IMG/VR virus record: IMGVR_UViG_3300025534_000213
Location: 1,576 to 65,575 of that record
DNA: 64,000 nucleotides
Direction: 5' to 3' (one strand)
From: a virus
Within the stretch, counting starts at the first letter, position 1. Each line of letters starts with the position of its first letter. Positions 2,553 to 35,545 of the stretch are shown one piece after another. Both the position numbers and the translations under genes were made by a program. The notes under the pieces are model-generated. The model saw only the letters and a program-made list of their open reading frames with translations. It had not been told where the DNA came from and searched no databases.

Positions 2553-2633
2553 CCCGCAATACCGGCTCGCCGTAACAGGACTGCCCCCGGCGAGCCTGAT
2601 TTGAACTGCCTGCCATTTGAGAAAGCCATTGAG

Positions 2634-5429
2634 ATGCAGAGCGAGGTTACTGACCGCGAGCGCCGTCTCGCGAACGATCTCCGTGTGACGACACCCGAGG
2701 CGCTGCCCGCCTACCTGCATTTTTGGGGCAAGGCCACTCCGCCATCAGGTGCCGCCATGGGATGGCATCCGGCTGTTTATCACATGCTTGATGTGGCGGC
2801 CTGCTTCGATGTCCTGTTCGAGCATTGCCGACCGTCTTGGCTCGATCCTGCATACAAGGCGCATCTGTTGCTGCTGGTTGCCTTGCATGATATTGGCAAG
2901 ATAACGCGGTCTTTCCAACAACAGGCTCCGGACTACTGGCCTGCGGCGCTACTCGGGCCATTCAAGAAGGTTGCCCGGTCCAACCGCCACGATACGCTCG
3001 GCCACGATATCATCGGCTCCTTGCTGAGATACGAACTTGAGGCGCTTCTACCGGAATCCAAATATCAATTACACTGGTTGCCACTCGTGCGTGCCACCAC
3101 GGGTCACCATGGAAAGCCGCCGAAAGGCGTTGGTAGTCCTAATCTACCGCCAGAGGATTGCTGCGACACCTGCCAGACGCATGTGAGGAACATCTTCAAG
3201 GATTTCTGCGATCTGTTCCTCGGTAAAAACCGGGGCAACGCCATACTCGACAAGGCGGCGCCATCCGAGCAGGTTAAGCGGATGCACTGGTGGTTCGCCG
3301 GGATCGTGAATCTGGCGGATTGGATCGGGTCCTCGTCCGCGTGGTTCCCATACACGGCACCGAGTATGCCGCTCGACCGATATTACGAACTCGCGCGTCA
3401 ACGCGCCGAGGTGGCGTGCTCGCAGGCTGGTGTCCTCCCTGCCAAGAGCAATCGCCTGCTCAGCTTCGCCGAGTTGTTCGGCATTCCTACGCCGTCGCCT
3501 GTGCAGAACTGGTGCGCCACGGTCCCACTTCCCGAGGGCGGAAAACTAGTATTCATCGAGGACGAGACCGGGAATGGCAAGACTGAGGCAGCCTTGATGC
3601 TGGCTCACCGCATGATGGTGGCTGGCGATGCAACAGGGCTGTTCTGCGCCATGCCGACCATGGCGACCGCCAATGCGATGTATGATCGGTGCGGGAAGTA
3701 TTTCCGGCGGTTCTTCGCCGCTGGCACGAAGCCGTCGCTGGCTCTGGCGCATGGCAAGAAGCACCTCAACGAGGCATTCCAACTGTCCCTCTCGCGGCAT
3801 CTCCACCAGAGCGTCCGCGATATAGAAGATGGCGACCTTGATGAGGGCGACACGACAGGTGTGGAATGTGCCACGTGGATCGGTAGCGATAACCGTCGGG
3901 CCTTCTTGGCCGACGTGGGCGTTGGTACGATAGATCAGGCCCTCCTAGGCGTGATGCGCAGCAAGTTCGGAATGCTGCGGCTTTTCGGGTTGTCGCGCCG
4001 TGTGCTCATCATTGACGAGGCGCACGCCTACGACTCCTACATGATCGAGATCATCAAGCGGTTGCTGGAATTCCATGCTCGGCTTGGCGGGTCGGCGATC
4101 ATCCTCTCCGCCACCTTGCCGCTCTCCATGCGCAACCAGCTTGCGGCTGCCTTCGCCACGGGCCTCGGAAATACGACGCTACCACCCTTGACCGCGACCG
4201 GATACCCATTGGCGACCATGGTGTCGGCCAGTGGCGTGGTCGAGGAGCATGATGCGCTGGTGGCCGGGACCCCTCGAAAGCGTGGCCGTGGCCCCGCGCG
4301 GGTCGAGGTTATCAGCGATTTCGAAAGCGTGCTTCGTGAGATCGAAAACGCGGCCCAGTCCCACGCGACCGTAGCGTGGATCAGGAACACCGTGCGGGAT
4401 GCGACCACGGCAGCCCGCATCCTTCGTGAGCGGGGACTGGACGTGACCTTGTTCCATGCCCGCTTCACCGCCGGAGACCGTGCGGACATCGAGACCGAGG
4501 TTCTTGCTGCATTCGGGAAGGAGAGTAGCCGTCCCGGCCGGGATGGGCGGGTGGTCGTAGCGACGCAGGTCATCGAGCAAAGCCTTGACCTCGATTTCGA
4601 CCTGATCGTCTCGGACCCGGCGCCCGTTGACCTCCTGATTCAGCGGGCCGGGCGTCTCTGGCGCCATATCCGCGATGACCGCCCTCTGAGCGAGCCTCGT
4701 TTCATTATCGCGGCTCCAATGCCCGTTGATGACCCGCCTTCCGGATGGCTCGAAGGGATGACGGAGGACGATCTCACCGTCGCCGCTGCGCGGATTATCT
4801 ATCGGGATGCGGCGTTGCTTTGGCGGAGCGTCCGAATCACCAAGGGAGAGGGCTCCATCGGCAGCTTGGATGGCATCCGCCGAATGGTGGAGGCCGCCTA
4901 CGACAAGAGGAGCTTCGGAGCATATGGAAAGCAGTTTATCCCGTCCGGCTTGGAATCCTCCGCTGAATGGGCAGCTACAGGAGACAAAAAATCTACGTGG
5001 ATGGGCCAGAATGCCCCCCTGACCTACATCGGCGGCTACTCCGGGGGACAATGGGAAGATGACACGCTGATTCAGACCCGTCTTGGCAAGCCAGCCGTGG
5101 TGGCCCGCTTGGCCCGTGAGGAAAACGGCAAGCTAGTCCCGTTCTACCCGTCCGAGCGGCCGGGTGCGGCGGCTTGGGCCATGTCCGAGGTAACCTCGTC
5201 CTACGTGGACCTCACTCACATCGAGTACGAGGCGAGGGTCGATGCTCTGGTACGCTCTGCCAAGCGTAACTGGGGAAGTAACGACAAGCGCATACCGCTC
5301 ATCCCGTTGCAGGCCCAGCCAGACGGTAGCTGGAAGGCGGTTGTGTCGTTCGGAACCAGCGATGGCGAAACGGGCGACCTGCTCATCAGCTACCACCAGC
5401 GCGAAGGATTTTTTGCCAAGCGCACCTAA
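2634..5429 (+). CDS. cas3: CRISPR-associated HD nuclease-helicase Cas3 (type I-E)
   Basis: HD-domain motifs HMLDVA, LHDIGK, GHHG, LADWIGS; SF2 helicase motifs TGNGKT, DEAH, LSAT, ATQVIEQSLD, QRAGRLWRH; ATG at 2634 preferred over TTG at 2601. Confidence 0.96.
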   Translation: MQSEVTDRERRLANDLRVTTPEALPAYLHFWGKATPPSGAAMGWHPAVYHMLDVAACFDVLFEHCRPSWLDPAYKAHLLLLVALHDIGKITRSFQQQAPDYWPAALLGPFKKVARSNRHDTLGHDIIGSLLRYELEALLPESKYQLHWLPLVRATTGHHGKPPKGVGSPNLPPEDCCDTCQTHVRNIFKDFCDLFLGKNRGNAILDKAAPSEQVKRMHWWFAGIVNLADWIGSSSAWFPYTAPSMPLDRYYELARQRAEVACSQAGVLPAKSNRLLSFAELFGIPTPSPVQNWCATVPLPEGGKLVFIEDETGNGKTEAALMLAHRMMVAGDATGLFCAMPTMATANAMYDRCGKYFRRFFAAGTKPSLALAHGKKHLNEAFQLSLSRHLHQSVRDIEDGDLDEGDTTGVECATWIGSDNRRAFLADVGVGTIDQALLGVMRSKFGMLRLFGLSRRVLIIDEAHAYDSYMIEIIKRLLEFHARLGGSAIILSATLPLSMRNQLAAAFATGLGNTTLPPLTATGYPLATMVSASGVVEEHDALVAGTPRKRGRGPARVEVISDFESVLREIENAAQSHATVAWIRNTVRDATTAARILRERGLDVTLFHARFTAGDRADIETEVLAAFGKESSRPGRDGRVVVATQVIEQSLDLDFDLIVSDPAPVDLLIQRAGRLWRHIRDDRPLSEPRFIIAAPMPVDDPPSGWLEGMTEDDLTVAAARIIYRDAALLWRSVRITKGEGSIGSLDGIRRMVEAAYDKRSFGAYGKQFIPSGLESSAEWAATGDKKSTWMGQNAPLTYIGGYSGGQWEDDTLIQTRLGKPAVVARLAREENGKLVPFYPSERPGAAAWAMSEVTSSYVDLTHIEYEARVDALVRSAKRNWGSNDKRIPLIPLQAQPDGSWKAVVSFGTSDGETGDLLISYHQREGFFAKRT

Positions 5430-5437
5430 AAAGTTCG

Positions 5438-5502
5438 TTGACCAAACGATGATACGCTGGTAGCGAGAGCCGCACAGACATCACCGCACCGATTTCAGAA
5501 GG
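5438..5502 (+). promoter_or_regulatory. putative promoter and leader motif of the Cascade operon
   Basis: A-tract + GTTGACC -35 box like other promoters in the window (weak -10), followed by GATTTCAGAAGG at 5491-5502. Confidence 0.4.
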
Positions 5503-5514
5503 CGTTTTGGCAGA

Positions 5515-7134
5515 ATGAACCTGCTCACCGACCCGTGGATTCCCGTATTTTTGAAGGACGGCACCAAGGCCACAATCAGCCCGGCGGGTATCGCCGATCA
5601 ACAGAACCCGCCCATGCGCGTGGCGTGGCCGCGCCCTGATTTCCGCCTCGGTGCGATGGAACTCCTGATCGGCATAATGGCGGTGGCATTGGCCCCTTCG
5701 ACCGAGGAAAGGCTGCTGGAATTGCAGAGCGAGAAGCCGTCGGAGGCCGATCTCCGGACTTTCTTTGCCCCCATAGCCCACGCCTTCAATTTCGACGGGG
5801 ATGGCCCGCGCTTCATGCAGGACTTTGATCCGCATTTCGAAGTGCGCAAAAAGGAAAATGAGAACTGCGACCCAATCCTGCTGTTGATTGATGGACCCGG
5901 TGGTCGGACCGCCGAAAACAATACTGACTGGTTCGTCAAGCGCGCACCCGACAAGGTAGTCATGTCTCGCGCCACGGCCGCGATGGCGCTGTACGTGTTG
6001 CAGACCTATGCCCCTAAGGGCGGCAGAGGGCACATGACTGGTTTTCGCGGAGGTGGACCACTGACAACCTTGGTGATTCCGTTCCGCGATGCGACCCTGT
6101 ATGACATCGTGCTTGCCAACCTCCCTGTTTTGAAAACGCAAGGTCCGATCCAGCCGAGCGACCATGCGCACATCTTCTCGTGGCTGGCTCCAATGCCAAC
6201 CACACTGACCCCCCAAAATGTGCATGAGTTGCAGGCGTTCTTTGGGATGCCACGCCGCATTCGGCTGCATTTCCAAGATGTGGACGGTGCGACGTGCCAT
6301 ATCACGGGTGATGCTGACACGAAGGTGGTCACCGGTTTCCGCCGAGCCCCCTATGGGATTAGGTACAGCGACATCGTGATGCGGCACCCGCTGAGCCCGT
6401 ATGCTCCCAAGAAGGGTAAGTACGAAGCGGTGGCCGCAAAGAGCACGGGTATCGGTTGGAACGACTATCTCGGCCTCGCTGTTGGCAACTCCGCAACCAA
6501 GCAGGATTCAGCCGCGTCCGTGACGACGTTTCGTGACCTCGTCAACAACGTTGACGCGCGTATCTATGCGGCCGGGTTCGCAATGGCCGATGCTAAGGCC
6601 GAGGCATTCGTTGAGGCCGAAATGCCCATGCCTCTGTTCACCGACAAGACTGCGCAGGCCAAGTTCGATAGGCGCCTTACGGATTTGATTGAGGCCAGTG
6701 CCCTCGTTTCGAAGCACCTCCAAGCCGCAGTCTTTTATGCGACCGGCTCGGAGGCGCGCACGTTCGACGTAAACAAGACACTTATGCATATGGTCGAGCG
6801 CCGGTTCTGGGAAGAAACCCAGAACCCGTTCAACAAGACCCTGAGTAATTGGACGCGCGCGATCCGCGCCGAAACGCCTCTACCGGACAACTGGGGCGAC
6901 GAATGGCGTGAGGAGCTAAAACGCGTCGCGCTGAATATCTACGACGACTTTGTTGACCTCGATCCGAAGCATCCCCGCTTCGCCAAAGCAGGAAAGGCGG
7001 CAAGCGGTAAAGAGAAATCGCCGTATGTCCGGGCGGTGGAACAGAGAAAGCGTCTTTGGTTTCTGCTACACGGATACAGCGAGGCCGGGTGCGATCTGTA
7101 TCGCAAGCTCGGGCTGCTGCCTACTTCGTCCTGA
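5515..7134 (+). CDS. cas8e: Cascade large subunit Cas8e (CasA/Cse1)
   Basis: MNLLTDPWIPV start, FNFDGDGPRFMQD, GGRGHMTGFRGGGPLTTLV, FFGMPRRIRL, HPLSPY; lies after cas3. Confidence 0.95.
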   Translation: MNLLTDPWIPVFLKDGTKATISPAGIADQQNPPMRVAWPRPDFRLGAMELLIGIMAVALAPSTEERLLELQSEKPSEADLRTFFAPIAHAFNFDGDGPRFMQDFDPHFEVRKKENENCDPILLLIDGPGGRTAENNTDWFVKRAPDKVVMSRATAAMALYVLQTYAPKGGRGHMTGFRGGGPLTTLVIPFRDATLYDIVLANLPVLKTQGPIQPSDHAHIFSWLAPMPTTLTPQNVHELQAFFGMPRRIRLHFQDVDGATCHITGDADTKVVTGFRRAPYGIRYSDIVMRHPLSPYAPKKGKYEAVAAKSTGIGWNDYLGLAVGNSATKQDSAASVTTFRDLVNNVDARIYAAGFAMADAKAEAFVEAEMPMPLFTDKTAQAKFDRRLTDLIEASALVSKHLQAAVFYATGSEARTFDVNKTLMHMVERRFWEETQNPFNKTLSNWTRAIRAETPLPDNWGDEWREELKRVALNIYDDFVDLDPKHPRFAKAGKAASGKEKSPYVRAVEQRKRLWFLLHGYSEAGCDLYRKLGLLPTSS

Positions 7135-7172
7135 GCCCCCTTCATCGCATAACGCTTTTTTTAGAGATTGAA

Positions 7173-7682
7173 ATGTCAGACATTGAAAAGGCGACGATCA
7201 AAGTTGGCGCGGAAGCCTATGAATGGTGGCGGGGGTTGCAACCGGCGCCGGTTGGAAGCGGTCGAGGTGACAAGGCCGCGCTCAGCAAGTTATCGCGTGC
7301 TCCTGATCCCCTGTCTGCCTTAATGGTTTCTGCCACCATCGATCTGTGGAAAAGGCTCGGAAGCAAAGACTACGATGCGGATCGGGTTGCCGTTATGGCT
7401 GCCGTGCTTGCACGGGTCAAAAAGAACGATTCGGAGCGAGTTGCGCGCAGGCTTGGCGAGGGGCGGCGAGTTAAGGAGGTGCGATTCAGCCGTCTTATCA
7501 GCACGGACGATCCGACCGACTTGATGAGGCAGTTGGGTCGGGTAATTCGCATGATCGACGATTGTGCCAACGTTAGGGATTTGGCAGAGTCAATTTATGA
7601 CTTGACTGATCCTTTGCGCGCTGGTAGTCGTCGCCGTCGTTGGTTGTACGACTACCATGGCGCGTCTATGGACGACGCCTGA
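7173..7682 (+). CDS. cas11: Cascade small subunit Cas11 (CasB/Cse2)
   Basis: WWRGL...GDKAALSKLSRA, AAVLARVK, RFSRLI, RRRWLYDY; lies between cas8e and cas7. Confidence 0.9.
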   Translation: MSDIEKATIKVGAEAYEWWRGLQPAPVGSGRGDKAALSKLSRAPDPLSALMVSATIDLWKRLGSKDYDADRVAVMAAVLARVKKNDSERVARRLGEGRRVKEVRFSRLISTDDPTDLMRQLGRVIRMIDDCANVRDLAESIYDLTDPLRAGSRRRRWLYDYHGASMDDA

Positions 7683-7714
7683 TTTTCTTCCGCCTTTTTT
7701 AGAAAGCCACACCC

Positions 7715-8914
7715 ATGACCACATTCATTCAGCTTCACTTCCTGACGAAGTATCCGGTCAGCAACCCGAACCGCGATGATCTGGGGCAGCCCAAGACGGT
7801 GAATTTCTGGGGCACCCCTCGCGGTCGCATCTCCTCGCAGTCGCTCAAGAGAGCCGTGCGGACCTCGGAAATCTTCCGGGAAGCGTTCACGAACAATCCG
7901 TTGGGTGTGCGCACGAAGCTCGTCGGCCAGAAGATCATCGAGCACCTGACCGGTCAGGGTGTTGCGGACGATAAGGCAACCGAGGTTGCCGTCGCCCTCG
8001 TCGCCCTTCTCAACGACAAGAAGGCCGAGGATGAAAAGAAGAACAAGAAGGGTGCCAAGAATGGTGGCAAGAAGGGCAGCAAGAAGGGCAGCAAGAAGGG
8101 TGCCGACGCCAACGAGGTCGTAGAGGATGCGTTCGGTGAGGATGTGGAGGATATCGACGACAACGAGGAGTCGGAAAAGTCCGATTCCGCCAAGAAGATC
8201 GTCTTGGAGACGGGCCAGCTTGTGCATCTGTCGCCCTTCGAGATCGACCAGATCATGAAGGTTGCGACCGAAGTGGCGAACGGCGCTCCGGTACCAACCA
8301 GCATTGATGTGCTGCTGAGCAATAAGAACATCAGCCCGGATATCGCCATGCATGGGCGCATGATGGCGAGCCATCCCCACTATACCTGCGAGGCGGCCGT
8401 GCAGGTATCGCATTCCATTACCACACACGCCGTGAAGGTTGAGGATGACTTTTTCTCGGCGGTGGATGACTGGAACAATGCGAACAAAGGCTCGGGCCAC
8501 ATCGGTGACCGAAGCTTTCTCGGCGGCGGCGTGTTCCACACCTATGTCTGCATCAACTATGACCTGTTGGTCAGCAATCTGGGTGGAAACACGGAACTGG
8601 CAAAAGAGACCATGGTGACCTTTCTGCGCGCCATGATGGAGGATGGTCCGCGTGGGATGCAGGCATCCTACGGGTCGCGTGTCCGCACCGGTTATGTGCT
8701 GATAGAGCGTGGGACCCAAATGCCGTTCACCAGCCAGACGCATTTCGACGTTCCGGTAACCGGTAACGACCTCATGTTGGAGTCCATTAAGCGTTTGCGG
8801 GACGAGCGAGATGCAACGCACGCACTCTACGACGAGGAGATTGACAAAATCGAATTCGGTTCGGGCCTGCCCACCAAACCTAAGGACCTGTACGATTTCC
8901 TGAGGGACACGTGA
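7715..8914 (+). CDS. cas7: Cascade backbone Cas7 (CasC/Cse4)
   Basis: FIQLHFLTKYPVSNPNRDDLGQPKT, RISSQSLKR, DIAMHGRM, AAVQVSHSITTH, EDDFFSAVDD. Confidence 0.96.
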   Translation: MTTFIQLHFLTKYPVSNPNRDDLGQPKTVNFWGTPRGRISSQSLKRAVRTSEIFREAFTNNPLGVRTKLVGQKIIEHLTGQGVADDKATEVAVALVALLNDKKAEDEKKNKKGAKNGGKKGSKKGSKKGADANEVVEDAFGEDVEDIDDNEESEKSDSAKKIVLETGQLVHLSPFEIDQIMKVATEVANGAPVPTSIDVLLSNKNISPDIAMHGRMMASHPHYTCEAAVQVSHSITTHAVKVEDDFFSAVDDWNNANKGSGHIGDRSFLGGGVFHTYVCINYDLLVSNLGGNTELAKETMVTFLRAMMEDGPRGMQASYGSRVRTGYVLIERGTQMPFTSQTHFDVPVTGNDLMLESIKRLRDERDATHALYDEEIDKIEFGSGLPTKPKDLYDFLRDT

Positions 8915-9645
8915 GCCAAATGCGGACCTACCTCACCTACGGCATCTACGCACCCATCGGTTCGATGGGTGCGGTAGCGGTGGCCTCGAAGCGTGTGGGC
9001 TGGGATAGGCCCGCACGCTCGGCGATGCTCGGAATGATTGGTGCCGCGCTTGGGATCGAGCGTGACGATGAGAATGCGATCCAGACCCTTGAGCAGGAAA
9101 CGGGGTTGGCGATGCTGATCGTCCGTCCCGGTACTCCCTTCGAGGATTTTCACACGACGCAGGTCCCGAGTGGGAAGGGAAACTGGCGCACTCGGGCCGA
9201 GGAACTCGCTGCCGTGAAAGGCAAAGACAACCCGATTGTCTCATGGCGGGAATATCGCAGCGATGTGGCGCTGCTCGCCACCGTCTGGCATAGGACCGAT
9301 ACACCTCGGTTTCCGCTGGTTCGTATTGCGGAGGCTCTCGAACACCCCCATTTCGTGCTCTACCTTGGCCGTAAGGCGTGCCCGCTCGGACTGCCCTTGG
9401 CGCCCCGCATTGTTGAGGCCGAGACGCCCATCGCCGCCCTCATGAACCGGCGTGACACCGGACCTGAGCGCAAGTTCTTCAAGAAAGAGAGACCCAGTCG
9501 TGCGCCGCAGCCCTATATTGTGCTCGATGTAAGCGATGCACCGGAAGGGGAGGCCGCTCGCATCGAATTTCGATCTGATCGGTTGGCTAGCCGGAAGCGG
9601 TGGCAGTTCCTCCCGCGCGGTGAGGCCATCATTCCGCTTGTCTGA
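8911..9645 (+). CDS. cas5: Cascade subunit Cas5 (CasD)
   Basis: APIGSMG...R...PARSAMLGMIGAALGIER, DFHT, REY..D, LYLGRKACP. Confidence 0.95.
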   Translation: MSQMRTYLTYGIYAPIGSMGAVAVASKRVGWDRPARSAMLGMIGAALGIERDDENAIQTLEQETGLAMLIVRPGTPFEDFHTTQVPSGKGNWRTRAEELAAVKGKDNPIVSWREYRSDVALLATVWHRTDTPRFPLVRIAEALEHPHFVLYLGRKACPLGLPLAPRIVEAETPIAALMNRRDTGPERKFFKKERPSRAPQPYIVLDVSDAPEGEAARIEFRSDRLASRKRWQFLPRGEAIIPLV

Positions 9646-9705
9646 CCGAGAAAATTCGGTTTAACTGGACGCAATTACAAAAGCCATTTGGACCTCGGAA
9701 ACGAT

Positions 9706-10410
9706 ATGTATATCAGCCGCATCACGCTGTTCCCCAAACCGTCCTTTGTTGCCCTTCGGACGCTGCTTCTTCCTGACGAGACTGGTGCTCGGGTTGCGGC
9801 GGCCCACAAGCTGATGTGGAGCTTGTTTGGCGATCATGAGGGCCGCGAAGCTGACTTCCTTTGGAAGGATGCGGGCAAGGATACCTTCTTGGTCCTGTCG
9901 AGACGGAAGCCCATGGCCGGACAGGATGCCACGGAGGTGTGCTCACTGTTCAGGATCGAGACCAAGCAGTTCGATCCTGCAATCAAGGCGGGTGACGAGT
10001 TGGAGTTTTCCCTGCGCGTCAACGCTACCGTTGCGACCAAGCGTGATGGCGAGAGAGACGGCCACCGCGAGGACATCCTTACTCGTGCTATCCGCGAATT
10101 GCGTGCTCGGGAACCGGGTTTCACGCGTGCGTGCCGGGACGAGGCCATTAACGAGGCGGCTTATAAGTGGCTAGTGCAACGGTCTGCCGCCAATGGCTTT
10201 GCGGTCGGTTCGAATACGTTCTCCGTGGAGAATCGGGATTTCGTCTCCGTGCCGCGCGAAAATGGACCGCCTATGCGGTTCGGAATGATGGACCTCGCCG
10301 GTCGAATCAGGGTGTCGGACCCGGATGCATTCAAGGCGCGCCTGATCGCGGGTTTCGGGCGGGCGAAGCGGTTTGGCTGCGGCCTGATGCTGGTTCGCCC
10401 GGCACGGTAG
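9706..10410 (+). CDS. cas6e: crRNA-processing endoribonuclease Cas6e (CasE/Cse3)
   Basis: MYISRI, HKLMWSLF, FLW, FSLRVNAT, and the C-terminal Gly-rich loop GFGRAKRFGCGLML. Confidence 0.95.
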   Translation: MYISRITLFPKPSFVALRTLLLPDETGARVAAAHKLMWSLFGDHEGREADFLWKDAGKDTFLVLSRRKPMAGQDATEVCSLFRIETKQFDPAIKAGDELEFSLRVNATVATKRDGERDGHREDILTRAIRELRAREPGFTRACRDEAINEAAYKWLVQRSAANGFAVGSNTFSVENRDFVSVPRENGPPMRFGMMDLAGRIRVSDPDAFKARLIAGFGRAKRFGCGLMLVRPAR

Positions 10411-10474
10411 TTCACGTTTTGGTGAAAACTGTGTCGAGACATTACTCTTTGAATATCAATGGCCTACAGCAAGG
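10411..10474 (+). promoter_or_regulatory. CRISPR leader
   Basis: 64-bp AT-rich segment between the cas6e stop and the first repeat; IHF-like TATCAAtggcCTA at 10454-10466; TTTTGGTGAAAA about 50 nt upstream of the repeat. Confidence 0.75.
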
Positions 10475-11052
10475 GTGTTCCCCGCGCGTGCGGGGATGAA
10501 CCGAGAGGATGGGATCACCGCATATTTAGGGTGACGTGTTCCCCGCGCGTGCGGGGATGAACCGGTTGATGTGCTGGGTTCGCCTGCCCGCGCCGAGTGT
10601 TCCCCGCGCGTGCGGGGATGAACCGGCCGCTGACGGCTTCGCCCGCGATGCAGGGCCGTGTTCCCCGCGCGTGCGGGGATGAACCGAAGGTCTCGCCCGG
10701 TGGGGCTGCGGTGTCCTCGTGTTCCCCGCGCGTGCGGGGATGAACCGTCATGCGGGTCATAATATGCACGCCAGATCGCGTGTTCCCCGCGCGTGCGGGG
10801 ATGAACCGGTGCTGGGCCTCATGGCGGACGAGGTCGCAGAGTGTTCCCCGCGCGTGCGGGGATGAACCGCGCATTGCTCAACGGGCTGGCATCGCCACCG
10901 GGTGTTCCCCGCGTGTGCGGGGATGAACCGTCCAGCGCATTGCACCGGAGCGGCGCGCCGTGGTGTTCCCCGCGCGTGCGGGGATGAACCGTCGCCGCCA
11001 TCCTTCAGCAGGAGGCGATGTTCGTGTTCCCCGCGCGTGCGGGGACAACAAA
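10475..11052 (+). CRISPR. type I-E CRISPR array: 10 repeats, 9 spacers of 32 nt
   Basis: Repeat GTGTTCCCCGCGCGTGCGGGGATGAACCG (29 nt) starts at 10475, 10536, 10597, 10658, 10719, 10780, 10841, 10902 (C>T at 10914), 10963 and 11024 (3' end degenerate); constant 61-nt period. Confidence 0.99.
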
Positions 11053-11087: not shown

Positions 11088-11120
11088 GCCCCCAAACCCC
11101 ATTTCGAGAAACACATTGCC

Positions 11121-11462
11121 ATGAAGATCGAGATCACAGACCGCGAGCATTGGCTCGCTCGCGTGGACGCCGCGATCAACGCCATCATGGCCAGACGCGC
11201 GGAAGAAGATTCAAAATATGAGCGTGAATGGCGCGAGAGGCAGAACCGCAGGGCGGCCACGTGGTGGGGACGCCTGCTCGGCTTCAAGCCCGTCACCGAC
11301 AATGACCGGCCGGACCCCGTCGATGACAGCCTGTTCTTGAAGTACCCATCCATTTATGCGTGGGGCGATCTCGACCATCTGAAGAAGATCAGGCAAGCAC
11401 TGACCGAGGAAGGAACCGGCGTGATCTATCTCGACGCCGAGGACCTGAGGGCGGTTTCATAG
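11121..11462 (+). CDS. hypothetical protein
   Basis: ATG at 11121 in frame with ORF 10902..11462 (the upstream part of that ORF is array sequence). Confidence 0.65.
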   Translation: MKIEITDREHWLARVDAAINAIMARRAEEDSKYEREWRERQNRRAATWWGRLLGFKPVTDNDRPDPVDDSLFLKYPSIYAWGDLDHLKKIRQALTEEGTGVIYLDAEDLRAVS

Positions 11463-17869: not shown

Positions 17870-17901
17870 CGGTGGTCTCATCCCCTACGGAGGGTCCGGC
17901 C

Positions 17902-17991
17902 ATGCATGACCTGCTGCTGTTCGACTGGTTCGAACACATGGACCGGTCGCCCGGCGCGAAATTGCTAGCCAACCTGCCTTTCCATGGCTGA
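17902..17991 (+). pseudogene. truncated duplicate of the 18282 gene
   Basis: MHDLLLFDWFEHMDRSPGAKLLANLPFHG* versus MHDLRLFDWYEHTDRMPGG... Confidence 0.6.
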
Positions 17992-18289
17992 CCTCGATCT
18001 CACGCTCGGCTGGTGCTGGCACTACGTGGATACGTCCATATCAGTCTCAAACTGGGACGACATCCTACCGGGCTATCGTTATCGGGGCGTCCACACCGCC
18101 CTCGAATACCTGTCGGAGCAAGGATACCCGTTCGATCTCGCCTTTGAGGACACCGGGCGGCGCGCAACCGGCTATGGGGGCAAGACCGAAATGCTCTCGC
18201 GTCTGCGCGTGATTATGAGCCCCGAGGTCTATGCCATCTATCGGCTCGTGGGCGGTCCCATCCCCTACGGAGAGCCCGCCCATGCATGA
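17984..18289 (+). CDS. tandem paralog 1 (MxDL...YRxxGG family)
   Basis: LEYLSEQGYPF...VYAIYRLVGG. Confidence 0.7.
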   Translation: MADLDLTLGWCWHYVDTSISVSNWDDILPGYRYRGVHTALEYLSEQGYPFDLAFEDTGRRATGYGGKTEMLSRLRVIMSPEVYAIYRLVGGPIPYGEPAHA

Positions 18290-18563
18290 TCTGCGGCTGT
18301 TCGACTGGTACGAACACACGGACCGGATGCCCGGCGGCCATCTTTCCCCGCGCGACGCGGCGCGCTTCATCCCGAAGATCGACGAGATACTGACGACTTT
18401 CGAGGCAATGGGTGTCCCGTTCTCGCTTCGCATCGACACCGACGATGCGACGCGCCCGCAGTTCCCACTCCAGTGTGGGCTGGTGCTGAGCCTCGATGAT
18501 ACGGCCCTCACCCTGTTCCGGGTGCTCGGCGGGCAATGCTTGTCGGAGTCGTCCCATGCCTGA
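18282..18563 (+). CDS. tandem paralog 2
   Basis: FEAMGVPF...LDDTALTLFRVLGG. Confidence 0.7.
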   Translation: MHDLRLFDWYEHTDRMPGGHLSPRDAARFIPKIDEILTTFEAMGVPFSLRIDTDDATRPQFPLQCGLVLSLDDTALTLFRVLGGQCLSESSHA

Positions 18564-33490: not shown

Positions 33491-33506
33491 GCGGGCCATC
33501 GCGGCG

Positions 33507-33762
33507 CGAACCGGAACCGCCCCTTGCGGTTCAAATCGCCAATTTCGGCCATGCTTTTCAGCAGCTTCCGCAAACGCCTTTGACCCCCGTGGCGGCGCCG
33601 GAGGCCGCATCCTGCCGCTGCACCCCCTGCGGCCAACCGGCGGCGTTCCGGCGGGCGCGACCTGCTCCGGATGCCCGCAATCCGGTCCGTCCGGTGCCCC
33701 TCGCAGGACGAACCCGAACGACGAGATGCGGTTCAAATCGGCAAATCGCGCCCATCTTTTCA
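33507..33762. repeat. duplicated ~55-bp element downstream of the parA operon
   Basis: CGAACC.GAAC...TGCGGTTCAAATCG.CAA...CCAT.CTTTTCA at 33507-33560 and 33709-33762 (202-nt offset). Confidence 0.7.
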
Positions 33763-35292: not shown

Positions 35293-35373
35293 GATCCCCC
35301 CTTTGAATCTGTCGCCGGGGCAATATGCCGGTACCGAACGCGTTCTGGGTAGGGGGTGCTGGCACGCGGCCCT

Positions 35374-35545
35374 TCGCGCAACGCATTGAAATCATTTGAT
35401 TTCCCCGGAGAAATCCGATTCGCCGGGCGGCTAAGATGCGGTTTTCGGGCGCCGACGTGGCATCACTGCCACATACCTGCCGGGACGGCCAAAGAGAGGC
35501 CAATCGCGCAAGCTATTGAAATCTTTGGATTTCCCCGGAGAAATC
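35374..35545. repeat. 42-bp direct repeat with internal palindrome upstream of parA
   Basis: 35374-35415 and 35504-35545, 37/42 identical; each ends in the near-palindrome GATTTCCCCGGAGAAATC. Confidence 0.85.

Follow-up and report, generated by a model that had tools for sequence, protein, structure and literature searches.

A well preserved type I-E Cascade–Cas3 locus in a jumbo phage, with phage-type initiation signals and no adjacent cas1–cas2

[quoted passage not shown] In the lytic phage ICP1, a type I-F Cascade with Cas3 lies in a variable locus missing from its relatives; the system comes with adaptation genes, its target (PLE) is known and it has been proven by experiment. According to the available text of a 2024 review, ICP1 was then the sole phage with an experimentally studied CRISPR anti-defence (PMC11656645). 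For huge phages, the available text of Al-Shayeb et al. (2020, PMC7162821) reports compact arrays, Cas3 kept and, in almost all systems, no Cas1/2. Here we describe a type I-E locus in a 64,000-nt stretch of viral DNA (hereafter the window; positions 1,576 to 65,575 of IMG/VR record IMGVR_UViG_3300025534_000213; coordinates below are those of the window, and all parts of the locus lie on the + strand). It shares with ICP1 the setting of a lytic phage with Cascade and Cas3 in a variable locus, and with the huge-phage systems the compact array, the missing adaptation genes and the retained Cas3. It differs from ICP1 in its type and in being known from sequence alone.

The locus is a real, well preserved type I-E interference module. 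It has the gene order and the fused HD–helicase Cas3 of the E. coli and T. fusca systems, as well as the 29-nt hairpin repeat, 32-nt spacers and integration host factor (IHF)-type leader of bacterial type I-E. It differs from bacterial systems, however, in having no adjacent cas1–cas2, a leader reduced to 64 nt, phage initiation motifs, opened gaps between genes, a phage-derived Cas3 N-terminus and a charged insert of ~50 aa in Cas7. Similar CRISPR loci are already on record for phages; what this one adds is an unusually well documented domestication. New here are the initiation motifs with opened overlaps, the copied Cas3 start, the leader motifs at bacterial spacing and the divergent Cas3 clade. 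On balance, we lean towards a resident I-E Cascade–Cas3 cassette, derived from the old capture of a cas1-less system of Acetobacterales type, which cuts rival phages and plasmids and depends on host Cas1–Cas2 and IHF for spacers. The cassette would have been captured by recombination at the start of the phage gene at 11121..11462 and would be expressed during infection from phage-style signals. Cas6e would cut the repeat hairpins to give CRISPR RNAs (crRNAs) of ~61 nt, Cascade would bind DNA flanked by a protospacer-adjacent motif (PAM), and Cas3 would unwind and degrade the bound DNA, with occasional spacer gain in hosts that have a compatible I-E Cas1–Cas2 and IHF.

The genes run in the order cas3–cas8e–cas11–cas7–cas5–cas6e, followed by the leader and by ten repeats with nine spacers. 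A sequence-only reading of this DNA had listed the same six-gene set and nine-spacer array, and family models and the array parse bear it out. Each of the six open reading frames (ORFs) is unbroken, giving 7.8 kb of cas genes without any stop or frameshift, and all match I-E family models above curated cut-offs, including the five NCBIfam I-E Cascade models (Cas8e, Cas11, Cas7e, Cas5e and Cas6e) in canonical order. The first gene, cas3 (2634..5429), encodes 931 aa with a fused HD nuclease and superfamily 2 (SF2) helicase (TIGR01587, E 4e-63; TIGR01596; PF18019). Then come cas8e, or Cse1 (5515..7134; 539 aa; TIGR02547, E 2e-53), which can be aligned to E. coli CasA (4qyz) with its glycine-rich loops included; cas11, or Cse2 (7173..7682; 169 aa; TIGR02548); cas7e (7715..8914; 399 aa; TIGR01869), with an insertion of ~50 aa at about residues 108–161; cas5e (8920..9645; 241 aa; TIGR01868), for which a GTG at 8911 is an alternative start; and cas6e (9706..10410; 234 aa; TIGR01907), whose C-terminal glycine loop is alignable to Cse3 structures.

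The same reading had judged the HD and helicase motifs of Cas3 to be intact, and alignments to the nearest relatives and to the solved structures 4q2c and 4qqw agree. The HD residues H50, H85-D86, K89, H119, H158-H159 and D229 are present, as are the helicase motifs GNGKT (313–317), DEAH (461–464), SAT (492–494) and motif VI (670–678); we take these residues to be the catalytic ones, an assignment with which the alignment to 4q2c and 4qqw is in agreement. The flanking proteins, scanned against Pfam, NCBIfam and PHROG, include no transposase, and with Cas3 intact the locus is distinct from a Cas3-less Cascade of the CRISPR-associated transposon (CAST) or repression-only type. The predicted model of Cas7 has an ordered core, with Cas7 chains of I-E Cascade as best Foldseek matches (E 9e-20), and an insert (about residues 101–160), Lys-rich in one half and then acidic, which is predicted to be disordered (predicted local distance difference test, pLDDT, <50 at 108–161). 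The Cas7 homologue P0002 carries an Ala-rich insert at the matching position.

The operon bears several marks of the phage. A diverged copy of positions 11099–11158, where the gene that follows the array begins, is found at 2613..2671, where a phage initiation motif and the first ~13 codons now form the start of cas3. The local score of the two segments is 61, against a maximum of 41 among 2810 control windows. From the ATG, 29 of 38 nt in the coding part are identical, while the next best of 6448 ATG sites reached 22. Because the N-terminus of Cas3 matches the start of the neighbouring phage gene, and this extension is missing from the three nearest Cas3 proteins, cas3 appears to have borrowed a phage start, and the duplication is likely a scar of the capture. 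That it is merely a shared initiation motif was considered and rejected, since the 38 coding nt stand out by themselves. The gene itself (11121..11462; 113 aa), which is the probable insertion target as well as the donor of the cas3 start, has homologues on four IMG/VR contigs, none of them with cas matches nearby, and no match in Pfam, NCBIfam or PHROG. Duplicated gene starts or paired intergenic repeats also occur at 17871–17956 and 18251–18336, at 33496–33762 and at 35368–35545, which suggests that start-region duplication is common in the variable region of the phage.

The initiation motif consists of a U-rich tract and a Shine–Dalgarno (SD)-like AGAAAG, and was scored with a position weight matrix (PWM) trained with the cas sites excluded. 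It stands 8 nt before the ATG of cas3 (2616..2625; score 19.7) and also precedes cas8e (5493..5502; 19.5) and cas7 (7697..7706; 15.0), where scores above 8 were found at 2 of 57 related cas8e starts and at none of 35 related cas7 starts. Before cas11, cas5 and cas6e it is weak (1.7, 1.9 and -3.2, respectively). Overall, 17% of the 219 phage starts scored above 8, as did 0.7% of 1500 ATGs taken at random and 5 of the 279 starts of related cas genes. The motif is probably a ribosome-binding signal, since three alphaproteobacterial genomes have a 16S tail complementary to its GAAAGG segment; five further genomes contained no 16S sequence. Two upstream motifs are enriched genome-wide, this one (U-rich plus AGAA(A/G)G, ~8 nt before ATG) and a late-promoter-like TAAATA word; in the stretches examined of the related Sinorhizobium phage Phosso, an ATG follows the former at only 2 of 18 sites. 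The spacing of the genes has changed as well. The gap before cas11 is 38 nt and that before cas6e 60 nt, against 15 nt or less in 35 of 35 and 72 of 75 relatives, respectively; on this comparison, the overlapping gene junctions of the relatives are opened in the phage cassette.

The cas genes also differ in composition, with GC content at synonymous third codon positions (GC3s) of 0.58–0.75, where 109 other genes with 150 aa or more have a median of 0.83, a gap somewhat overstated by a gene caller that prefers high-GC3 ORFs; the lower bias had been noticed by eye in the sequence-only reading. Such a difference would be expected as well if a bacterial cas operon had been joined to a phage contig in a chimeric assembly, which is unlikely in the extreme, because the operon has phage motifs within it and cas3 shares its start with a phage gene. 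Moreover, seven window proteins (four Cas and three flanking) have identical copies on 2–3 contigs each, from several sources, the longest contig being of 484,642 bp; the flanks are syntenic with Phosso; and no close bacterial source is found, the named Cas3 relatives being at most 45% identical.

The phage record is linear and has 191,473 bp, with a CheckV completeness of 38%. The myovirus core and T4-like jumbo setting proposed from the letters were upheld, as a gp55-type sigma factor, SbcD/gp47, rIIA/B and baseplate genes were confirmed in the window. The capsid protein is 80.6% identical to that of Phosso (469 kb) and 67.7% to that of Agrobacterium phage Atu_ph07 (490 kb); Atu_ph07 is placed among T4-like jumbo phages in the available text of PMC7824862. 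Both isolates are without the cassette: neither has Cas7e, and neither is among the eight Cas3 matches in 50,697 phage records. In the available text of PMC11242549, Cas4 alone is mentioned for a jumbo phage of Sinorhizobium. In Phosso, homologues of post-array genes stand within about 2 kb after a von Willebrand factor A (vWA) gene, and an RNA ligase comes next. This flanking order, the same but without the cassette, is the interval in its empty state, and Phosso, as a cultivated relative, offers a natural comparison. An alphaproteobacterial host is inferred from the phage relatives and the donor lineage; the ClpP homologues were uninformative on host lineage.

Although the cassette is intact, its relatives are distant. 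For Cas3, identity is 53%, 51% and 49% to the three nearest proteins and 45% or less to the next, and the nearest Cas7 is 45% identical, followed by others at 42% or less. A profile search of 1.84 billion representatives gave no third close Cas7 member, and in IMG/VR no close Cas relatives were found, only four distant I-E loci. Judged by the identities of the nearest Cas3 and Cas7, the acquisition is old, not recent, and intact genes with relatives only 45–53% identical imply long selection. In a Cas3 tree of 21 rows (a 127-row tree gave the same result), the phage protein and the three nearest form a clade (100/100), which joins Belnapia arida and one further protein (95/97) and nests among I-E systems of Acetobacterales/Rhodospirillales type. 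The Cas7 tree shows a similar grouping, weaker and with long branches, with Belnapia near (SH 91). This nesting and the lower GC3s support acquisition from a bacterium, as had been suggested before trees were built.

The sister locus of Belnapia arida T18 (L135, 2003–13160) has, like the phage locus, its array directly after cas6e and no cas1–cas2, and the genome gave no Cas1 match. It differs in lying on a bacterial contig, in its ~49 repeats, in its proteins (Cas3 43% and Cas7 32% identical to those of the phage) and in having no initiation-motif score above 8 at four cas starts. Because this sister is cas1-less, cas1–cas2 were probably lost before the capture by the phage, as far as the trees allow; the alternatives are long-branch attraction and independent loss. 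The Belnapia locus also shows a solitary repeat before cas3 and a long Cas7 (405 aa). Two further loci, L150 and L170, are without cas1 as well, with no Cas1 match in either genome, while L113, considered as a cas8e-less variant, was rejected because it carries cas1/cas2 and looks like an assembly break.

Another member of the Cas3 clade is the locus L083/L084, in which cas3 is followed by a seven-spacer array whose repeat is one base different from that of the phage; the IHF-type leader site is also kept in L083. The 12-kb contig of L083 carries homologues of two genes of our phage and one of Atu_ph07 (E 4e-25), and from these 12 kb it probably belongs to a related jumbo phage; a second protein of the contig gave no match when searched. 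In L083 (1–4230), where Cas3 is intact, one degenerate repeat lies upstream of cas3 (821–849), and L084 is without one unusual, 37-nt spacer present in L083. P0127, also of this clade, would lie on one contig with P0002, the contigs of both having 25,416 bp.

In the phage, the array (10475..11052) has ten 29-nt repeats with a period of 61 nt and nine different 32-nt spacers, and is compact in the way of published huge-phage arrays, whose median is six repeats in the available text of PMC7162821. Eight of the first nine repeats are identical and one has a single change, while the last is degenerate. The repeat folds into a 7-bp hairpin (z -2.7), and an identical one is found in a Rhodospirillaceae locus (L149). 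As had been read from the letters, the leader (10411..10474) begins directly after the stop of cas6e, where cas1–cas2 usually lie, and only 64 nt separate this stop from the first repeat. Within them are an upstream motif (10419–10423) and an IHF-type site (10454–10466), so named from a consensus that we take to be that of IHF. The site ends 8 nt before the first repeat, a spacing found in 40 of 63 related leaders; of these 63, 13 have the exact upstream word, which here stands at offset 51. Scored with a profile of 58 bacterial leaders, the phage leader reached 25, about their leave-one-out median, against a mean of -30 and a maximum of 14.5 for shuffled sequences (n=2000). In E. coli, I-E integration involves a single IHF site together with a motif that lies ~50 bp upstream, according to the available text of 10.1101/2023.05.26.542337. 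With both motifs kept at the bacterial spacing, the cis elements for a host Cas1–Cas2 are retained, and a plasmid type IV-A system is described as using host I-E adaptation in trans in the available text of PMC11656645. The homogeneous repeats, and the fact that no spacer is common to the phage array and that of L083, are consistent with spacer turnover.

Several findings weigh against a cassette that still cuts DNA and gains spacers, the first being that about 60% of the phage genome lies outside the record. The absence of cas1/cas2 reported by the sequence-only reading holds, at the locus and elsewhere, for the 191,473-bp record, which at 38% completeness is not the whole phage. A complete autonomous system, with cas1–cas2 on the remaining ~290 kb, has its parallel in complete I-E systems on other jumbo phages. 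We consider it very unlikely, since cas1 is in the same locus in 68 of 71 related loci, the leader here stands directly after cas6e, cas1 is missing from the sister loci L083 and L135 too, and almost all huge-phage systems are reported without Cas1/2 in the available text of PMC7162821.

A second point is that, among 361 genomes sampled from a Hyphomicrobiales-centred order, only 2–9 contained a close repeat match, so that a compatible host Cas1–Cas2 may be rare. The Belnapia genome, with its ~49 repeats yet no Cas1 match, indicates in addition that such arrays can outlast adaptation. Together with the shortness of the phage array and the lack of targets reported below, these observations would fit a system in which interference works while the inherited guides no longer grow, the present host having no compatible Cas1–Cas2 and the leader motifs being relics. 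We give this a small chance, because both leader motifs persist at exact spacing within 64 nt, the IHF-type site persists in L083 as well, and uniform repeats stand against proteins that are about 50% diverged. A further point against a working cassette is that no promoter was found: the consensus scan remained at chance level, and there is no late TAAATA box on the + strand between 2000 and 11200.

The search for targets also speaks against it, as no protospacer was found in the phage, plasmid, IMG/VR or bacterial sets, all searched in part. Within the phage record there is no self-target, the best off-array match having at least 9 mismatches. The whole array, compared with 50,697 phage records, gave only repeat matches or matches with E >= 0.6 (40 of 43 matching records), and the plasmid search gave, among the matches listed, repeat matches or weak ones (E >= 0.2 for spacer 9). 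In IMG/VR, the first 22 nt of spacer 1 and the exact repeat, searched separately, each had 0 matches. No spacer-length match appeared among the matches listed for 121 genomes of the Belnapia family, nor in the 361 order-level genomes, with 2–5 candidates scored per genome in both sets, and the records of Phosso, Atu_ph07, G124 and G125 gave no spacer match. In the other direction, 559 spacers from the other loci examined had no match longer than 21 nt in the phage record. The class of target is therefore inferred by analogy: published phage spacers mostly match other phages or prophages (PMC7145637, available text), so the targets would be rival mobile elements. The same machinery might instead be aimed at the host chromosome, defence islands or satellites, as counter-defence or host take-over in the manner of ICP1 against PLE. 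Precedents exist in the available text of PMC11656645 and PMC7162821, the latter with spacers of phages directed at genes for transcription and translation in the host; with Cas3 intact, degradation of host DNA would be processive, and the spacers are GC-rich, as are the phage and its likely host. We nevertheless consider host-directed action unlikely, as no host match appeared among the matches listed for the 121 family-level genomes or in the 361 order-level ones, at 2–5 candidates scored per genome, and the published spacers just cited point mostly to phages or prophages.

The remaining points against concern the proteins. Of the columns that show conservation in 90% or more of 45 relatives, the Cascade subunits keep 75–82% (Cas7 80 of 107, Cas8e 81 of 104 and Cas6 38 of 50) and Cas3 88%; for Cas7, the 75% kept lies below a bacterial minimum of 93%, in a comparison tilted towards the bacterial rows, by which the columns are defined. 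Of the 27 departures in Cas7, P0002 has only 9 in common with the phage, so that part of the loss is lineage change. Furthermore, L083 has lost most of Cascade, keeping on the opposite strand the N-terminal fragment of cas8e and the C-terminal fragment of cas6e, so that such cassettes can apparently decay; its Cascade may have been lost or be borrowed from the host. Our cassette might accordingly be decaying or repurposed cargo, its Cascade drifting, or binding without cutting, towards the state of L083 with only cas3 and an array, and the predicted disorder of the Cas7 insert and the remnants at the sister locus could be read in this sense. This seems rather improbable to us, given the 7.8 kb of cas genes free of stops and frameshifts, the kept catalytic motifs, the tailored initiation signals and the bias of the column comparison.

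Beyond a resident cassette directed at rivals, a broader and distinctly more tentative possibility is that an I-E lineage evolved inside Atu_ph07-like jumbo phages, of alphaproteobacteria, through a single cas1-less capture, gene-by-gene rewiring by phage translation signals and a Cas3 start taken from the phage, and a leader trimmed to the two host-integrase motifs, with a further reduction in sister phages to Cas3 and an array that borrow the Cascade of the host. If true, these phages would represent graded steps of a parasitism that exploits the CRISPR machinery of the host. In any case, the locus records the domestication of a bacterial operon through an insertion scar, phage initiation signals and a minimal leader, and its 8.4 kb are a self-contained case for asking whether type I systems of huge phages cut DNA and gain spacers in trans.

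Systems of this general kind have been catalogued before, which limits the surprise. In Table S1 of PMC7162821, Cas3 without Cas1/2 is entered for at least five type I rows, and an I-E Cascade with Cas3 and Cas1/2 for F21_PHAGE_55_22; the difference from the present locus is that I-E with Cas3 and without Cas1/2 is not among the rows listed, and expression rewiring is not mentioned for the huge-phage systems in the available text of that paper. A complete IMG/VR phage of 419,707 bp (L008/G124, with direct terminal repeats) carries type I-E with Cas3 and Cas1. The sequence-only reading, which called a full Cas3-bearing I-E module less commonly described, therefore overstated its rarity. Our literature search, run without subscription papers and bioRxiv supplements, returned nothing on a phage I-E locus with Cas3 and without cas1/2, or on its rewiring. 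A 2022 survey by Al-Shayeb in Cell reportedly covers CRISPR-bearing phages in their thousands, and the present arrangement may be among them. In the available text of PMC12607003 and PMC11748809 there is no mention of I-E. In the 419,707-bp phage, the genes cas3–cas8e–(cas11)–cas7–cas5–cas6e–cas1 adjoin a 1405-aa DNA polymerase III alpha and are unrelated to the Cas clade described here.

Some minor features of the surroundings complete the description. Between the upstream small gene and cas3, a 9-bp inverted repeat (2562–2596) is possibly a terminator or an RNA processing hairpin. In the gap between cas3 and cas8e, a GTTGAC word (5436–5465) resembles one enriched upstream of phage genes, possibly an internal promoter. 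After the array, in the segment 12153–14469, a phage ClpP (of a large family, at 70–80% identity) is encoded together with a DNA methyltransferase and with a dual-specificity phosphatase.

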